Positions 3,717 through 28,176 of a stretch of 64,000 nt of DNA are shown one piece after another. The stretch lies in contig DAOUJP010000010.1 in the NCBI GenBank assembly GCA_034422515.1, positions 200,123-264,122 on the forward strand. The letters are read 5' to 3'. The translations under genes were made by a program, and so were the position numbers. The notes beneath the pieces are model-generated. The model saw only the letters and a program-made list of their open reading frames with translations. It made no database searches and was not told where the DNA came from. Each line of letters opens with the position of its first letter. The first letter of the stretch is position 1. This stretch comes from Chloroflexota bacterium. GTDB lineage: Bacteria; Chloroflexota; UBA11872; UBA12225; JAJDUF01.

Positions 3717-4591
3717 GGCTGCGCCTGGATTGCCGATGGTCGCGCCGCCGTGCGGGGGAGCGGCGGGTGCTTGGTGTGCTGGCGCTGGCGGAATATCGCG
3801 TAGAGCACGACGCCCGTCGCTACGGCCAGGTTGAGCGAGTTGACGCGGCCGACCATGGGGAGGCGTAGCAGGTCGTCGCAGGCGGCGGCTTGGTTGGCCG
3901 ATAGTCCTTCGCGCTCGCTGCCCATGAGCAGGACGAGCGGGGCAGCGTAAGAAACGGCGTCGTAGTCGCGGGTGGCGTTGACGGCGGTGCCGACGAGGCG
4001 GTAGCCGTGCGCTTGCTGCCAGGCGCAGAGCGCGGCGAACGTCGTGCGGACCAGGCGTTGGGTGCAGATGGCGCCCATGCTGGCGCGCACGGCCGCCGGG
4101 TGATACGGGTCGGTGGCATCGCCGAGGAGGATTAGTCCGGCGCCGCCAACCGCGTCGAGCGTGCGGAGGATGGTGCCGACGTTGCCGGGGTCCTGCGGAG
4201 CGTCGAGGGCGACCCAGCATAGCTCGTCGCCCGGCTGGACGGTGGCGAGGGAGTGCCAACGCTGGCGCACCACCGCCGCGAGGCCCTGTGGATGCTGGCG
4301 CGTCGAGAGGCTCTGCATCACCGCGGCCGTGACCGCCAGGCGAGGCACGTCGCGGCGCACCTGGCGGGCAAGCAGGTCGTGGGCATAGTCGCTGGTCAGT
4401 AGCTCCGGGGCGACGATCAGGGAGGCGATCTCGCTGCCACTGCGGATGGCTTCGGCTACGAGACGGATGCCTTCAGTGAAGAACAGGCCGCTGCGGCTGC
4501 GCTCCTTGCGCGTGGCGAGCTTGCGGACTTGCATGATCCGCGGATTGCGGGGGCTGGCGATCAGCGTGCGTGTGGGTTGGCTGAGCATTGG
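3680..4591 (-). CDS. TrmH/SpoU-family RNA 2'-O-methyltransferase
   Basis: SPOUT motifs GNVGTILRTLDAVGGAG, LLMGSEREGLS and NSLNLAVATGVVLYAI. The ORF-track N-terminus runs into repeat A/C, so the start was moved to the internal Met (MLSQPTR). Confidence 0.8.
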   Translation of the reverse strand, partial: PMLSQPTRTLIASPRNPRIMQVRKLATRKERSRSGLFFTEGIRLVAEAIRSGSEIASLIVAPELLTSDYAHDLLARQVRRDVPRLAVTAAVMQSLSTRQHPQGLAAVVRQRWHSLATVQPGDELCWVALDAPQDPGNVGTILRTLDAVGGAGLILLGDATDPYHPAAVRASMGAICTQRLVRTTFAALCAWQQAHGYRLVGTAVNATRDYDAVSYAAPLVLLMGSEREGLSANQAAACDDLLRLPMVGRVNSLNLAVATGVVLYAIFRQRQHTKHPPLPRTAARPSAIQAQPPSVPPSGRGDP

Positions 4592-21423: not shown

Positions 21424-22245
21424 TCAGGATGAGGGGGCGAGGTTGGCGCCTAACGCTGCGCGCAGGGGGGTGAGGAAATCGTCGTCACCGACGTGGACGG
21501 GACAAGCCGCCCGGCGCGCCGCGGCGAGGGGATCGAAGTAGCCTAGCGTGCGGGCCATGTCGGCCGCGCGCTCCGGGTAGGTCCGCAGGTAGTCGTTGAA
21601 TTCTGCGAGTGGGTAGTCGTTGGTCGTGGGGAGCACATCGGCCAGACGGTAGAACAACGATGGCGCGGCGCGCACGCCGGCAACCTCCCGGCCACGCAGG
21701 GCGGCCACAAAGAGGGCCAGGTCGTTGCCCGCGACCGTGATGGCGCTGTGGTCCACTTCGTCCGATGGGCGGCTCAGGAGAAAGTCCACGGCGCGGCAGG
21801 CGTCGGCCACGATGCCGCGATAAGCATAGGCTTCCGGCGAATCGATGCCGTCGGTGAGCAGGCCGGGGTAGGCTGCGGCGTAGGGCCGGTCGCTGAGACG
21901 TTGGCCGCGATGACACAGGGTCAGCACGGCGCGCTGCTCCGGCCAGCGGTGGTCTAGGTCGCCCACGGGCACATGCACTACACTGCCGTAGCCGGGTAGC
22001 TGCACTTCCACGCCACGTGGCTCCGCGCCGGCCGCAGGCGGCGGCTGGACGTAGTACGCAAACAGGCGGTAGGGGCCGATACTGGTGAAGCGCGCGCCGT
22101 ACACGAGCGCCTCCGCCGATGACCGCAGCGGCAGTAGCTCGACTTCGGGCGCCACCTCCGTGTGCGCCAGCTCGGTCGCTACCGTGCCCCAGAAAGCATC
22201 GAAATCCGCCGGCTCCGGTTGGTGAGGCAGCGTCGGTGTCTGCAT
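21424..22245 (-). CDS. Acetyl-xylan esterase/cephalosporin-C deacetylase (CE7/AXE1) paralogue with substituted nucleophile; probably catalytically inactive
   Basis: Alignable with the downstream CE7 gene throughout, but the GGSQGG nucleophile elbow is replaced by VAGNDLA (Ser to Asn) and the C-terminal GHG region is altered. Start trimmed to MQTPTLP. Confidence 0.65.
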   Translation of the reverse strand: MQTPTLPHQPEPADFDAFWGTVATELAHTEVAPEVELLPLRSSAEALVYGARFTSIGPYRLFAYYVQPPPAAGAEPRGVEVQLPGYGSVVHVPVGDLDHRWPEQRAVLTLCHRGQRLSDRPYAAAYPGLLTDGIDSPEAYAYRGIVADACRAVDFLLSRPSDEVDHSAITVAGNDLALFVAALRGREVAGVRAAPSLFYRLADVLPTTNDYPLAEFNDYLRTYPERAADMARTLGYFDPLAAARRAACPVHVGDDDFLTPLRAALGANLAPSS

Positions 22246-22306
22246 TGGATCCCCTTCGAGTCCTTGCTTGTCGCCGATGCGCGAGCGTAGGGCGGGCAGT
22301 CGGGCG

Positions 22307-23299
22307 TTAGGCGGCGACCTGAAGATGGTGGCGCATCCACGCCTGGACGTGCGGGGCGTGTTTGGCGCCGCCGGCACCGTGCCCCTCGCCCGGATAGGCG
22401 CGTAGCTCCTTGACCGCCGCGCCAACCGCCGCGAAGACGGCGTAGCCCGTTTCCGGTGGGCAGACGGGGTCGGCCAGCCCGATGTTCATGAGCGTCGGGC
22501 AGCTGATGCGCGGTGCCATATTGATGCCGTCGTAGAAATCGAGCGTCCGCAGGACCGCCGCGCGGCGGTCCGGATAGATGCGGAGGTAGTCGTTAAGCTC
22601 TTCATAGGGATAGGTGTGGGTGAGGTCAATGGCCTCGCGCATCCCGCAGAGGTAGGGCGCGCCGGGGCAGGCCGCGCGGATGGCGGGATGCCAGGCCGAT
22701 GTGACGATGGTCAGGGCACCGCCTTGGCTGCCGCCGGTCACGGCGACACGCTCCGGGTCCACTTCGGGGCGGCTGAGGAGCAAGTCAATCGCGCGCCAGG
22801 CATCGCAGTAGAAGCCGCGGTAGCCGTAGGTTTGGTAGTCGGTCAGGTTATGTGTGAGCAGGCCGGGATAGCCGGGGTTGAAGACGCCGTTTGACCGCAG
22901 CTTGCCGCGCGGGGCCACTACCACGCTGGCATAGCCTTCGCGTGCCCACTGCTTGCCTGTTGCGAGCGACGGCTCACTGACGTAGCCCGGCATGATGGCG
23001 ATGGTCGGGTTGGGCTGGCCGGCGCTATGGCGCGGCACGCAGTACCAGCAGGCGATCCGCAGCCGCTCCCAGCTTGTGTAGAAGACCTCGTAGACGAGAA
23101 CCTCATCGTCAGAGCGTAGCGGCACGAGCCGCACTTCCGGCTCCAGCGGAATATCCTGGAGCCGATCCCAGGTCTCCTGCCAGAAGGCATCGTAGCCCGC
23201 CGGCTTGGTGACGGACGTGCCGTAGCCGGCCGGGTCGCTCCGGTCATACGGCTGCCCATCACGGTCTACGGCGCCTACGCGGCTGGGCTGAAGGTCCAT
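22307..23299 (-). CDS. Acetyl-xylan esterase/cephalosporin-C deacetylase (CE7/AXE1 family)
   Basis: AXE1 N-domain; RVAVTGGSQGGALT nucleophile elbow; YPGEGHG C-terminal His motif. Confidence 0.85.
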   Translation of the reverse strand: MDLQPSRVGAVDRDGQPYDRSDPAGYGTSVTKPAGYDAFWQETWDRLQDIPLEPEVRLVPLRSDDEVLVYEVFYTSWERLRIACWYCVPRHSAGQPNPTIAIMPGYVSEPSLATGKQWAREGYASVVVAPRGKLRSNGVFNPGYPGLLTHNLTDYQTYGYRGFYCDAWRAIDLLLSRPEVDPERVAVTGGSQGGALTIVTSAWHPAIRAACPGAPYLCGMREAIDLTHTYPYEELNDYLRIYPDRRAAVLRTLDFYDGINMAPRISCPTLMNIGLADPVCPPETGYAVFAAVGAAVKELRAYPGEGHGAGGAKHAPHVQAWMRHHLQVAA

Positions 23300-23435
23300 G
23301 GTTGTGGCCTACTCCTTGGTTCCTAGTCGCCGGTGCAAAGGCCGCCGCACGCCGGCTGGCTCTAAGCCTAACTGGACGATGGCACTCGGTCAATGAGGCG
23401 TAGAGCCGAACGCACCGTATCTGCGTGTCGGAACC

Positions 23436-24122
23436 TCAGGTTGTTATGCCCAGCGCAGACAGCTTTTCCTCCCGGTAGAGGGATAGGACATCATTCAGTG
23501 CCGTGAGGTCACCGCCGAGATAAGCCTGAAGCCAACTCTGTAAGGCATCCAGGAAGTCTATATCAAGCACTACGGGACGCGGTACGAGCCAACGCTCGTG
23601 AACCACTTGCAGCCGGTCAAACCGCACGAAGCTCTCCCGAATACCATACTGGGTATCCGGAGGCATGTAGAAGAGTTGATTATAGGCATAGGCCTTTACT
23701 CGATCAATGAAGGTTTGTGAGTAGGGACGTTTCGTGCCTCTTGCCTGGAAGCCATACAGTGGGGCAACGACAAAGCCTTCATCGTGCTGGCGTGGGTGAT
23801 CCTGCCAGGAATCGCATGGTGAGGACACGACGACGGCCGGTCGCCACTTATGACGGCGGACAACGTCTACCTCGTCGGAACGCTGACCGATCTCATAGAC
23901 CGGGTAGCTTCCTTGGCGATCACGGAAATGCTGAGTTCCCACTTGTCTAATAATGTAGCTCTGCACCATCCTGGCATTGATGTCTCCGGCCTCCAGAACC
24001 GGAATTCGTGCTGCGTCAAGCAGATAAACGGCGGCGGTGTCGCAGATGCGGCCCGGTTCACATTGAGAATGCGCCAGTGGTTTTGGCTGCCGCATGTAGT
24101 AGCGGTCCAAAAGCTCGATCAT
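23436..24122 (-). CDS. Hypothetical protein, candidate toxin partner of the upstream Panacea-domain gene
   Basis: 228-aa ORF 9 nt downstream of the Panacea-domain gene on the same strand; lower GC than its surroundings; no recognisable toxin motif. Confidence 0.45.
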   Translation of the reverse strand: MIELLDRYYMRQPKPLAHSQCEPGRICDTAAVYLLDAARIPVLEAGDINARMVQSYIIRQVGTQHFRDRQGSYPVYEIGQRSDEVDVVRRHKWRPAVVVSSPCDSWQDHPRQHDEGFVVAPLYGFQARGTKRPYSQTFIDRVKAYAYNQLFYMPPDTQYGIRESFVRFDRLQVVHERWLVPRPVVLDIDFLDALQSWLQAYLGGDLTALNDVLSLYREEKLSALGITT

Positions 24123-24131
24123 GTTTCCGCC

Positions 24132-24866
24132 CTACTCGGCCTGCTCACGAATCGTGTTCGCTGCCTCCGGCGTGATCTGTACTGCTCGGCCGTCGAGGCG
24201 GCGGCGAGTCTGCGGCACCTGATCTTCGGCGTTGAGCAGCCGCATACCCTCCTCGTATACAGCGTCACGCGGAGCACGCGCTGGTCTAGTTCCGGCCCGG
24301 CGTGCTTCGCGCCGGCGAGCGAGCCGGCGTCGTAAGTCCGCGAGCACCTCATCCGACAGGCGGTGCGGCTCCCGTTGCGGCTGCGGATATTTTGGTGTGG
24401 CTCTCACTACTCGCGAGAAATCCAGCACCTCGCCCCGCGCCACGTTCTCCATCGGCTCTGTCCCAAAGTACACGTAATCGAGCAGCACCGGCAGGTCCTC
24501 CAGTCCCCATTGCTGCACAATGCGGTCTAGGATCACGCGATCAGGTAGAGTAAGGATGTCATCTACCGACACGTCCTCATAGCTCCCTAGCGCCACGTAA
24601 GCTCTGTGGCCGGAGGTCGTCGTGGCTTCATCGCTACCAAGATATGGCTCCAGAGCAGTGTCGTATGGTCCGTAGTGCAGAAACCGCCATTGGAGGCGCG
24701 TGAAGGGGTGACCGTGAACTCGATAATATTCGATGTCAAATAAATACAGCAGCTTTGCCAAGCGGGTACGGGCAGCGGTGCCTTCATGATCGCTCAACTT
24801 CTGGACGATATAGTCCACGAGCCGCTGAAGGTGAGGATGTAGTCGGCTAGACGCGGTGGTTGTCAT
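24132..24866 (-). CDS. Panacea-domain (DUF4065, SocA/PanA-like) putative antitoxin
   Basis: LAKLLYLFDIEYYRVHGHPFTRLQWRFLHYGPYDTALEPYL fits the DUF4065 core (KLLYfaD...G.P.T...w....yGPv...l). Arg-rich unstructured C-terminal tail. Confidence 0.6.
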   Translation of the reverse strand: MTTTASSRLHPHLQRLVDYIVQKLSDHEGTAARTRLAKLLYLFDIEYYRVHGHPFTRLQWRFLHYGPYDTALEPYLGSDEATTTSGHRAYVALGSYEDVSVDDILTLPDRVILDRIVQQWGLEDLPVLLDYVYFGTEPMENVARGEVLDFSRVVRATPKYPQPQREPHRLSDEVLADLRRRLARRREARRAGTRPARAPRDAVYEEGMRLLNAEDQVPQTRRRLDGRAVQITPEAANTIREQAE

Positions 24867-25130
24867 GGTACATGAACTCCACTCAGGCTAATGATTCTAG
24901 CGTTACCTGGGAACTAGAGGCCAGCCCCGCCAAGTGGACCCACAGTCCGATGCCGTGCCAGTGCTCGGAGCGCCAAGGCCAAGCAGCACTCCTCGCGCTT
25001 CGCGCCGCCGTTTGCGCCCTGCTGTGGAAAGGTACACGACGTTCCGGCCTGTCGTGCCCGGCCATAGCCGGTGGGGTGGGCCGCTTGACGAGGCGGCGCG
25101 GCTGTGTTACGATGCCTTCAGCCGGCCTGT

Positions 25131-25206
25131 GCGGGCATGGTGTAGTTGGTAACACGCGACCTTCCCAAGGTTGAGATCGAGGGTTCGAGTCCCTTTGCCC
25201 GCTCCC
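25131..25206 (+). tRNA. tRNA-Gly (anticodon CCC)
   Basis: GCGGGCA acceptor; D-loop AGTTGGTAA; anticodon stem CGACC/GGTTG with loop TTCCCAA; T-arm GGGTTCGAGTCCC; 3' TGCCCGC. CCA is not exactly encoded. Confidence 0.85.
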
Positions 25207-26103: not shown

Positions 26104-28176
26104 CTAACCACCCTGGGCTGCCGATGTCTCGACGGGTGTGAGCGTTACGGTCGGGCCGCCTTCGGCGGGGAGGACGTACTCGCTCAATCGCTGCTCCGTG
26201 AGTACGAAAATGCGGTCACCGGCCTCGTCAACCCACACGTCGCGGATTTCTTCGCCCGGGTTGGCGACTCCGACTAACTCGCGCTCGAACTGCCCGCTCT
26301 TGGCGAGCTGCACGATGCGACTATTGCCCGTGTCCACCACGTAGAGCGAGTTGATGGACACGCCGGTCGTGATCGCCTGGGGGTTTTGCAGTGGACGCTC
26401 CAGGCCCTGCAGGGTGAAGGGCCGTGGCTCGCCGCTCCGGTACCGCGTGATGCCACCATCAGCAGCGAGCACGAAGATGTCCCCGTCTATGGCAAGGTCG
26501 AGCGCCGTCGCGATCTCAGCGGGTACCGACGTGCCAAACCACTCATCGGGCGGCAGGGCATAGGTCCCGAGCGCCGTCGGCCGCCAGCGCAGGAGTTGGT
26601 TGGTACCCGTATCCACTGCATAGAGGCGGTCTTGGTACGTTTCGAAACCGAGGACCCGCTGCCACCCGGCCGCGCCGGGCAAACGCCCAGCGCGCATCGT
26701 ATCGTCAGCGGTGAGGAACCAGTAGTGTCCCGTACTGTCAATAGATACGACTCCGTCAGTCGTGGTGACCAGATAGGCCAGATCACCGACGGTTTGCCCG
26801 GCCTTGTTGCCCCCGCGCTCCAGCAGCAGTTCGGGCCCTTGGCCGGGGCGCACGGCCAGCACGGCGCGCGGCCCATCGAGGACAAAGAGGCGTTCACCGA
26901 AGCGGGTGACTGCGGAGAACTGGGTGGGACGGTTGATCTGTTCGGCGGAGAGGACGGACGGCACGAGCGGTGGCGGTGGTTCCAGCCCGGCGATGCGGGT
27001 GCTCTGCGCCTCGACGGCCGACCGTAGCTCGGCAGCGCGCTCCTCGGAACGCGCGTCGAGGGCGCTAATCTTAGCCAGGGCCTCGACGACGGCGTTCTGT
27101 CCTTGCTCCCGGTCGGTCACGCTGGCCAGGTCGGCAACGGCCCGCTCGGCCGCCGCCAGAGCTTGGGGGTTCGGTGTGGGTGAAGTGGCCACTTCCTGAG
27201 TCGGCCCCGCGCCGCTCAAGCGGCTGAGGATAAAGATCAGCAAGATGACCGCAAGCAGGCCGACCAGAATGATACGCAGACGTCCCTGGAGTACCGCGTC
27301 CAAGCGCTGCCAAGCACCGGCGACCATCCCCGAAAAACCGGCCGCCGGCGCCGCCGACCGGGGCCGGCCGTAGCCGGCTCGCGCCGGTCTGGGTCTCACC
27401 GGCGGCGCATCACTGCCAGTTGCTTCGTCCCACTCCGGCCCCAGGTCTTCCTGTCCATCCGCCCAGCCCGCTTCGCTCGTAGACGCCGGAGCCGTGCGGA
27501 CGACCAAGGCTTCGAAGTGGGGTGCTCCGCGCGCCAAGTGGTTACACAGCCAGGTTGCAGCTTGCTCGGCGCTGTCCTGATCCAGGGCGCGCCGCACGTG
27601 GGCAGGACGCAGGCGAGCGGCAAGCTCCGAGGTGCTGATAAGCAACGTCGCGCCTTGGCGCAGTGTGGCCCGCGCGTGCTCGATCTCTAGGTCCCAGCGC
27701 CTGGCCTGACCGCGCCGCAACGACTCGCCCTGCGGTGCCGCAACCGGCGTGTCCGGCCACATCCGCAGGGAACCCTGTCCCTGTTGGAGGAGGTAGATCT
27801 GTGCCGGCAACAGTTGGGCGAGCACCATGCCATGCTCTTGGATCAGCACCGCACTGGCGCCCAGCGCGATAAGCTCACGCGCTGGGGCGAGGGCATGGGT
27901 TTCGAGGCGGACGCACGCCGCACGCAAGGCGCGGCTCAAGGCTGAGGCCGGGGGGGACTCCGGCTCCTCGAGCAGTGCTTGGACGAGGGTCTCGCCAAAC
28001 AGGAGGCATGAGTCGTCACCAACCCCCTCAATCACGAGGAAGAGGTCGCTCGTACCCCGGCCAACCGCCTCGTCTGCCGGGAGGTGATGATGCTGGGCCT
28101 GAGGGGACTCTGCACGACGCTTGCCGCCCCAGACCGATGCGGCGGCCCACTCGATAACGCCGCTTTCTCTACTCAT
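26104..28176 (-). CDS. Single-pass membrane protein with degenerate PP2C-like cytoplasmic domain and extracellular beta-propeller-like repeats
   Basis: The N-terminal approximately 250 aa has PP2C-like spacing, but the metal-binding DG(x)GG is replaced by IEGVGDD. TM helix LRIILVGLLAVILLIFIL. C-terminal repeated YAVDTGTNQLLRW / YVVDTGNSRIVQL / IFVLTEQRL blades. Confidence 0.5.
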   Translation of the reverse strand: MSRESGVIEWAAASVWGGKRRAESPQAQHHHLPADEAVGRGTSDLFLVIEGVGDDSCLLFGETLVQALLEEPESPPASALSRALRAACVRLETHALAPARELIALGASAVLIQEHGMVLAQLLPAQIYLLQQGQGSLRMWPDTPVAAPQGESLRRGQARRWDLEIEHARATLRQGATLLISTSELAARLRPAHVRRALDQDSAEQAATWLCNHLARGAPHFEALVVRTAPASTSEAGWADGQEDLGPEWDEATGSDAPPVRPRPARAGYGRPRSAAPAAGFSGMVAGAWQRLDAVLQGRLRIILVGLLAVILLIFILSRLSGAGPTQEVATSPTPNPQALAAAERAVADLASVTDREQGQNAVVEALAKISALDARSEERAAELRSAVEAQSTRIAGLEPPPPLVPSVLSAEQINRPTQFSAVTRFGERLFVLDGPRAVLAVRPGQGPELLLERGGNKAGQTVGDLAYLVTTTDGVVSIDSTGHYWFLTADDTMRAGRLPGAAGWQRVLGFETYQDRLYAVDTGTNQLLRWRPTALGTYALPPDEWFGTSVPAEIATALDLAIDGDIFVLAADGGITRYRSGEPRPFTLQGLERPLQNPQAITTGVSINSLYVVDTGNSRIVQLAKSGQFERELVGVANPGEEIRDVWVDEAGDRIFVLTEQRLSEYVLPAEGGPTVTLTPVETSAAQGG

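Follow-up and report, generated by a model that had tools for sequence, protein, structure and literature searches.

What does a Panacea-domain gene do when the gene that follows it encodes a protein resembling no named toxin? The question is raised by two genes at positions 23436-24866 of a 64,000-nucleotide stretch of DNA from a Chloroflexota bacterium (contig DAOUJP010000010.1; the whole stretch is called the window here). The pair is probably a chromosomal type II toxin-antitoxin (TA) cassette of the PanAT class, in which the upstream gene, panA, encodes a Panacea antitoxin and the downstream gene, panT, its partner toxin. By its predicted structure, the partner belongs to the MazF/PemK/CcdB-fold superfamily, and profile comparisons are suggestive of a relationship to MazF. 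The original prediction, made from the sequence, had coupled these two open reading frames (ORFs); both are present on the minus strand, 9 nt apart. The parts of the locus are as follows, with the basis for each in brackets.

24132..24866, minus strand: panA, 244 amino acids, Panacea-domain antitoxin (PF13274 match, orthologue alignment, ratio of non-synonymous to synonymous divergence, dN/dS).
23436..24122, minus strand: panT, 228 amino acids, candidate toxin with a predicted, cryptic MazF/PemK/CcdB-fold core at about residues 72-205 (structure model).
24123..24131, minus strand: spacer between panA and panT, 9 nt, GGCGGAAAC, with a weak Shine-Dalgarno-like GGCGGA (sequence).
24867..24930, minus strand: conserved cassette leader, a putative promoter/operator (alignment of six occupied sites and sequence).
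23320..24987, minus strand: variable cassette of about 1.67 kb, consisting of the leader, panA, panT and a tail of about 115 nt (flank alignments).

The two genes run in the same direction in a common reading frame and are probably coupled in translation. Their composition differs from that of the surroundings, as had been noticed for the partner: the GC content is 0.55 for panT and 0.60 for panA against 0.63-0.69 in neighbouring genes, or 0.54-0.58 over the pair against 0.63-0.70 to both sides, and at third codon positions (GC3) it is 0.59 and 0.645, respectively, against 0.75-0.84 in five neighbouring genes. The leader contains a -10-like TAGAAT at 24894-24899 and, 5' of it at 24906-24924, a dyad-symmetric element that reads CTGG-N11-CCAG in the window and CTGGTG-N6-CACCAG in relatives; these may be the promoter and operator of the cassette, and the consensus promoter scan made no call on the TAGAAT element. 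Plus-strand ORFs overlapping the pair (for instance 23850-24335) are unsupported and were rejected as the frame shadows usual in GC-rich DNA. The toxin gene starts with ATG in the window only; the start is GTG in the related loci L012, L014, L015 and L007 and in the toxin remnant of L013.

The product of panA is a Panacea (DUF4065) protein, as had been proposed. It scores 28.6 bits against Pfam PF13274 (SocA_Panacea), above the gathering cutoff of 25.7 (E = 3e-6), with a match that spans only the N-terminal positions 1-44 of the 113 in the profile; the same profile is matched by all nine PanA orthologues from related loci, with a best E of 1.1e-9. In the orthologue alignment, the Panacea core (about residues 12-151) is strongly conserved, with the motifs KLLYLFD-EYYR, W-F-HYGPY and YVYF-TEPM. 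The C-terminal extension (about 160-244) is less conserved and is first basic and then acidic, with Ser171, Glu173, Arg181, Asp201 and Tyr204 invariant. A PanA profile gave only chance matches to PDB sequences, and this search revealed neither a solved Panacea structure nor a relative of the C-terminal extension.

The association of the two genes extends well beyond the window, and the proposed antitoxin-then-toxin order with a conserved downstream partner proved general. A PanA homologue lies directly upstream of the toxin homologue in 10 of 10 independent loci, down to a toxin identity of about 25%. These loci comprise P0007 (three contigs, 63% identity), P0013, P0004, P0006, P0011 and P0014, with P0301, P0288 and P0299 representing the branch of about 25% identity. 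The genes are 9 nt apart in four Chloroflexota copies and 13 nt apart in L008, and overlap by 1-8 nt in five others; the spacing in L007 is 36 nt by gene call and 9 nt by the start that tblastn implies. The upstream proteins of the distant branch have no precomputed Pfam match, and two of the three score 22.9 and 22.4 bits against PF13274, below threshold, over positions 1-93 and 1-70. They align with PanA along their whole length, over about 200 columns, including the C-terminal motif (hhalign 99.6%, E about 1e-24). At L031 the upstream ORF, of 169 amino acids, aligns to the C-terminal half of PanA only (106-214, 94%). The genes around the pair are wholly different between loci, for example type IV secretion system pilins and a PDDEXK nuclease in one case; as the linkage persists while the neighbours differ, a dedicated PanA subfamily and the toxin family move and evolve as a unit. 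Both genes are under purifying selection, with dN/dS of 0.18-0.34 for panA and 0.12-0.25 for the toxin gene, compared with 0.06-0.15 for the flanking genes.

The partner protein had been described as lacking any recognisable toxin family, and at the level of its sequence this holds: it matches nothing in Pfam, NCBIfam, PADLOC or PHROGs. Searched against PDB sequences, it gave no match either as a single sequence or as profiles of 14 and 100 sequences; SV40 T-antigen, ExoY and mS70, which appeared in these library and PDB searches with scores at chance level, were rejected as relatives. A word-indexed search with the protein found 15 relatives, and with the 100-sequence profile 41 matches, all metagenomic. 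An exhaustive profile search revealed 525 representatives at 50% clustering, 235 of them at E <= 1e-10 and nearly all 210-250 amino acids long. All sampled members come from metagenomes or metagenome-assembled genomes (MAGs), and look-ups found no RefSeq or UniRef accession or species name for the family. At the sensitivity used, none was found in plasmids or phages (tblastn) or in IMG/VR (scan). Among 100 diverse members, PemK_toxin is the sole recurrent Pfam family, with sub-threshold matches in 7 of the 100 (best E 0.0044), and Lys92 and Arg94 are the only invariant columns; Arg94 is also invariant in an alignment of 37 sequences.

In the predicted structure, the partner folds as an SH3-like barrel that can be superimposed on MazF, Kid and CcdB, with the MazF/Kid RNases scoring above or level with CcdB in every comparison. 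It is about twice as long as MazF. The additional residues form a family-specific N-terminal region of about 70 residues, an inserted helix (136-143) and C-terminal helices (188-223); residues 34-87 are poorly modelled, with a predicted local distance difference test (pLDDT) score below 50. For a profile-profile comparison we built a shallow reference alignment of eight sequences from MazF, Kid, ChpBK and EndoA, in which the EndoA sequence is 100% identical to PDB entry 4me7_A. The resulting profile recovers the solved chains of EndoA, Staphylococcus aureus MazF, Kid and E. coli MazF with E values of 1e-39 to 1e-54. Aligned with it by hhalign, the partner family gives a probability of 85.0% (E 6.3e-6), or 87.3% (E 3.8e-6) with permissive settings, which falls short of the usual 95%. 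The alignments span 88-102 columns, the permissive one covering 102, with partner residues 72-205 against EndoA 13-114. The MazF family profile was required for this, as the single EndoA sequence gave a probability of 4%; a search for EndoA homologues returned, among the matches listed, only orthologues more than 94% identical.

The profile alignment places several MazF motif residues on the partner, matching ESFVRFDRLQVVH of the partner with DSVILLEQIRTID of the MazF profile. Pro74 and Glu84 align with Pro15 and Glu20 of EndoA/MazF, Arg94-Pro95 with Arg25-Pro26, Tyr123 with Thr48 and Asp169-Arg170 with Glu78-Gln79. The catalytic arginine of MazF (Arg25 in B. subtilis, Arg29 in E. coli) is thus kept as the invariant Arg94. 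This arginine is reportedly the key catalytic residue of MazF, assisted by Thr48/Thr52. The suggested novelty of the partner as a toxin family stands in part. The partner represents an unnamed sequence family, missing from four profile libraries; given its predicted MazF/PemK/CcdB fold and a suggestive profile-level relationship to MazF, it does not represent a novel type of toxin, and such PanAT pairs have published and validated precedents.

The site of the cassette was compared between related genomes, as had been advised, by fetching GTDB genomes through the flanking AXE1-like gene and mapping both proteins and the neighbouring tRNA onto them. Ten Chloroflexota species-level genomes have the common backbone p690-VTT-tRNA-Gly-site-AXE1-AXE1. 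Within this set the cassette is polymorphic: the site is occupied in five genomes (the window, L012, L014, L015, which equals L005, and L007), empty in four (L010, L011, L016 and L017) and decayed in one (L013). The decayed locus (OY759972.1, 4625-6000, syntenic to window positions 23300-25130) is from the closest relative of the window, with 92.7% backbone identity. Its PanA ORF is intact, while an in-frame deletion has removed residues ~53-188 of the toxin, that is, the MazF-like core, leaving a remnant of about 92 amino acids that starts with GTG. The reverse situation, a toxin gene without panA, was not seen among the loci mapped. This pattern of occupied and empty sites, with one loss of the toxin core alongside retention of PanA, fits a real toxin.

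Flank alignments of the occupied (window, L012, L014, L015, L007), decayed (L013) and empty (L010, L011, L017) sites show that empty sites have, in place of the cassette, a filler of about 55 nt unrelated to it, rather than a clean excision. The filler sometimes contains palindromes resembling repetitive extragenic palindromes or miniature inverted-repeat transposable elements (REP/MITE-like). When the backbone genes are arranged in a neighbour-joining tree, the deepest branch carries the cassette, and the occupied L015 is sister to two empty genomes at 95% identity. The simplest history is that the cassette was ancestral, was lost at least three times and was disarmed once. Between the window and L012, synonymous divergence (dS) is 0.14-0.17 for the cassette against 0.24-0.38 for the flanks, and between the window and L015 it is 0.57 for the toxin gene against 0.26-0.38; these departures suggest allelic exchange of the cassette by homologous recombination between lineages. 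Because of its low GC3 and its presence/absence polymorphism, the cassette is considered accessory; its composition is foreign.

One Chloroflexota genome (OZ244848.1, 4,318,780 bp) has two diverged PanA-toxin copies. The first (L014) occupies the tRNA-Gly site and has 87% and 83% amino acid identity to the window pair. The second (L002) is located at about 4.13 Mb, between genes for an Fe-dependent repressor and an aminotransferase, with 64% and 63% identity. Comparison of L002 with the near-identical contig L001 (~10.6-12.1 kb) revealed an insertion with genes for a PaREP1-family protein and an Mrr_N/Mrr_cat restriction endonuclease, a few kb from this second copy. REP/MITE-like palindromes were found in the empty loci L016 (5379-6000) and L017 (5678-6000) and in the leader of the occupied L012 (~4119-4450). 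The palindromic repeats have the form GTCATTCCCGCG(A/T)AAGCGGGAA; in addition, GTCATTCTGAGCGGCCAACCTT occurs three times in tandem. The intergenic site seems to gather small repeats.

Taken as a TA cassette, the pair could work as follows. panA and panT, 9 nt apart, would be expressed in that order from one operon. PanT, a double-sized and highly diverged MazF/PemK/CcdB-fold protein, would most likely cut RNA at specific sequences and so arrest translation, with Arg94 as the key catalytic residue; the models for this are MazF and the validated MazF-like PanTs of P. moraviensis and B. ruminantium (PMC8832971). We infer that PanA binds PanT directly and holds it inactive. Neutralisation would most likely be the task of the C-terminal extension of PanA (LS-E...R...YD-VY-EE), with the Panacea domain as a scaffold or sensor. 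The acidic and aromatic segment YD-VY-EE would probably lie in the RNA groove of the toxin, as judged from the Phd-C helices of C. doosanense PanA (PMC10440598) and from the C-terminus of MazE. The GTG start codon of the toxin in four of five orthologues may keep its translation below that of the antitoxin. The ancestor of the Chloroflexota clade would already have had the cassette at this position, to be lost or disarmed repeatedly thereafter.

Several points weigh against this account. The window partner itself does not match Pfam PF02452 (PemK_toxin), its hhalign probability of 85-87% is not above the 95% that is the usual bar, and the MazF reference alignment was partly compiled by hand, though checked against the PDB. 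The remote-homology and structure comparison proposed for the 23436-24122 product yielded a predicted MazF-type fold and a profile match that is suggestive at a probability lower than is customary. The catalytic threonine (Thr48/Thr52) is replaced by Tyr123, which is a tyrosine in at least 90% of the family, and insertions have reshaped the loop that in MazF covers the active site, a loop modelled here at low confidence; for both reasons RNase chemistry is not assured. No helix-turn-helix (HTH) or other DNA-binding domain was detected in PanA, which leaves autoregulation unexplained. Finally, some MazF-like PanT candidates are non-toxic in E. coli (Kurata et al. 2022, supplement, PMC8832971).

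The alternative that survives best differs in role only: the same module might act mainly in abortive infection, with the Panacea domain sensing a phage cue and freeing or activating the MazF-fold toxin. Some distant members of the family have suggestive neighbours. The pair at L027 (5815-7665) is located beside CsrA and SIR2_2 genes, that at L029 (1542-6247) beside a type I restriction-modification S subunit, DUF488 and DuOB, and that at L031 (64-2019) beside an OLD-like TOPRIM AAA ATPase; an N6_N4 methyltransferase is found at L008 and Mrr a few genes away at L002. Presence/absence polymorphism would also fit the turnover of defence genes. In the clade of the window, however, the cassette lies among housekeeping genes, with no defence island; PADLOC yields only a chance-level match to DarG (E 0.018), and at the sensitivity used relatives were not found in phage, plasmid or IMG/VR records. 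We regard a mainly anti-phage role as possible but doubtful.

The replaced threonine, the doubled size with its large insertions and the non-toxic PanT candidates in the PMC8832971 supplement could also mean that the partner, although of MazF fold, no longer has nuclease activity and is not a toxin, forming a non-toxic regulatory or binding pair in a TA-like layout. The equivalent of the catalytic arginine is nevertheless invariant in 100 diverse members, the sole decayed locus dropped the toxin core and kept PanA, with no toxin-only locus seen, and the pair shows traits typical of true TA modules: the antitoxin gene comes first, the genes nearly touch or overlap, and the toxin starts with GTG. 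A pair of this non-toxic kind is therefore unlikely. Equally unlikely, in our estimate, is a more speculative combination in which a MazF-fold effector with changed chemistry or target would be joined to PanA as a phage-sensing switch, making the pair an unrecognised abortive-infection system rather than a MazEF-like addiction module; the replacement of threonine by tyrosine, the remodelled active-site loop and the N-terminal extension of about 70 residues are what suggest it.

The shared barrel raises the further question of whether the partner might poison DNA gyrase in the manner of CcdB instead of acting as an RNase. No MazF/Kid RNase scores below CcdB in the structural comparisons, the profile alignment fits the MazF-specific motifs P-x-x-GSEQ-GG-x-RP and DQ/EQ-IRT-D, and the only recurrent sub-threshold Pfam match is to PemK_toxin. 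In addition, validated MazF-like PanTs block translation, not replication (PMC8832971). A gyrase poison is accordingly very improbable.

Because the pair adjoins a tRNA gene, it had also been proposed to lie at an integration hotspot. Two further features are needed to judge this.

25131..25205, plus strand: tRNA-Gly(CCC), a neighbouring landmark outside the module, divergent from the cassette (ARAGORN; Rfam 65.7 bits).
25085..25113, plus strand: promoter-like site of the tRNA-Gly gene, TG-extended and sigma-70-like, TTGACG-17-TACGAT (promoter scan).

The tRNA gene is indeed close, with the start codon of panA 264 nt away, but its supposed role as a hotspot found no support. The cassette faces the 5' end of the tRNA gene and not its 3' end. 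The ~145 nt nearest the tRNA gene are conserved whether or not a site holds the cassette. Within them lies the tRNA-facing promoter-like site, which probably drives the tRNA gene and marks the inner boundary of the variable segment. The tRNA-Gly sequence itself is 100% identical in 11 related loci (L005-L007, L010-L017), whether occupied or empty. The variable segment of about 1.67 kb encodes panA and panT only; the neighbours are housekeeping genes, the syntenic neighbourhood lacks an integrase and any further mobility gene, and direct repeats derived from the tRNA were not found beside the pair. As a candidate attL/attR signature, we found a weak and imperfect CAGC(C)GGCGTGC near both junctions, which is unconvincing in a genome of 65% GC. 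The proximity of the tRNA gene thus appears incidental, given the 5' location and the absence of an integrase and of a tRNA-derived repeat. The idea that a genomic island carrying the pair recently integrated into the tRNA-Gly gene, for which the nearby tRNA, the atypical GC3 and the polymorphic site speak, is largely refuted and must be considered highly improbable in view of the 5' position with its conserved promoter flank, the missing mobility gene and direct repeat, the small size of a segment replaced by filler in empty sites, its presence in the deepest-branching relative and a cassette divergence that roughly parallels that of the backbone.

Two other neighbours are conserved in the clade. 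The minus-strand ORF at 26104-28176, between the genes for LexA and a VTT-domain protein, encodes 690 amino acids, has no Pfam domain in precomputed annotations and is present in all related genomes with 79-94% amino acid identity. On the other side, at 21424-23299 on the minus strand, are two tandem AXE1/acetyl-xylan-esterase-like paralogues with about 35% mutual identity, kept as a pair across the clade.

Panacea domains and MazF-like toxins have been found together before, so the architecture is already published and only the particular family is new. Eighty-eight putative toxin clusters adjoining Panacea have been described, of which T25 corresponds to PemK, while T5 (for example WP_116809181.1) and T6 (WP_083201923.1), which have no CDD match, were placed with EndoA/PemK/MazF by HHpred (Kurata et al. 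2022, PNAS, PMC8832971). MazF-like PanATs from P. moraviensis and B. ruminantium are toxic, neutralised and translation-inhibiting, and PanA (WP_083354365.1) and PanT (WP_083201923.1) of P. moraviensis form a complex (PMC8832971). The present pair resembles these systems in its HTH-less Panacea antitoxin directly upstream with a tiny gap or overlap, and in a "hypothetical" toxin recognisable as MazF-type only by profile or structure methods. Unlike that RefSeq-based set, the present family consists entirely of metagenome and MAG sequences without RefSeq accessions; compared with T5 and T6 by description only, it may be a distant part of either. In the wider TA network, MazF/PemK is among the commonest folds, and PanA can neutralise its toxin via C-terminal add-on helices (Ernits et al. 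2023, PMC10440598). The PanA-Doc system of C. doosanense (PMC10440598) likewise combines a Panacea core with a C-terminal extension specific to the toxin family, in a "linear" neutralisation model. Its toxin is Fic/Doc and its extension Phd-like, whereas the extension of the present PanA has no detected relative and its role is a proposed one.

The differences from MazEF, Kis-Kid and PemIK (PF02452) are larger. PanT has 228 residues instead of about 110, with an N-terminal extension of about 70 residues and extra helices, it has a tyrosine for the catalytic threonine and falls below the Pfam threshold, and its antitoxin is a Panacea protein with no recognisable DNA-binding domain rather than one of the AbrB or ribbon-helix-helix type. 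SocAB of Caulobacter crescentus, the founding Panacea/DUF4065 system, shares with the present pair an antitoxin with a SocA-like PF13274 domain. Its toxin SocB, however, is not related to MazF and is an inhibitor of replication that binds DnaN, and SocA is said to be a proteolytic adaptor that delivers SocB to ClpXP and not a simple binder. Unlike in SocAB, nothing at the present locus points to a ClpXP-adaptor mechanism.

The work adds to the Panacea network an uncharacterised toxin family of about 525 clusters at 50% identity, from essentially uncultured bacteria, and gives it an assigned fold, as modelled, and a candidate catalytic residue, Arg94. For annotation, "hypothetical" proteins become MazF-fold PanT candidates, while the understanding of TA biology is unchanged. 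The Chloroflexota clade provides a natural genetic series of intact cassettes, empty sites and a deletion of the toxin core that keeps the antitoxin. As in-silico support for toxicity this series is unusually direct, and it illustrates the loss of chromosomal TA cassettes.

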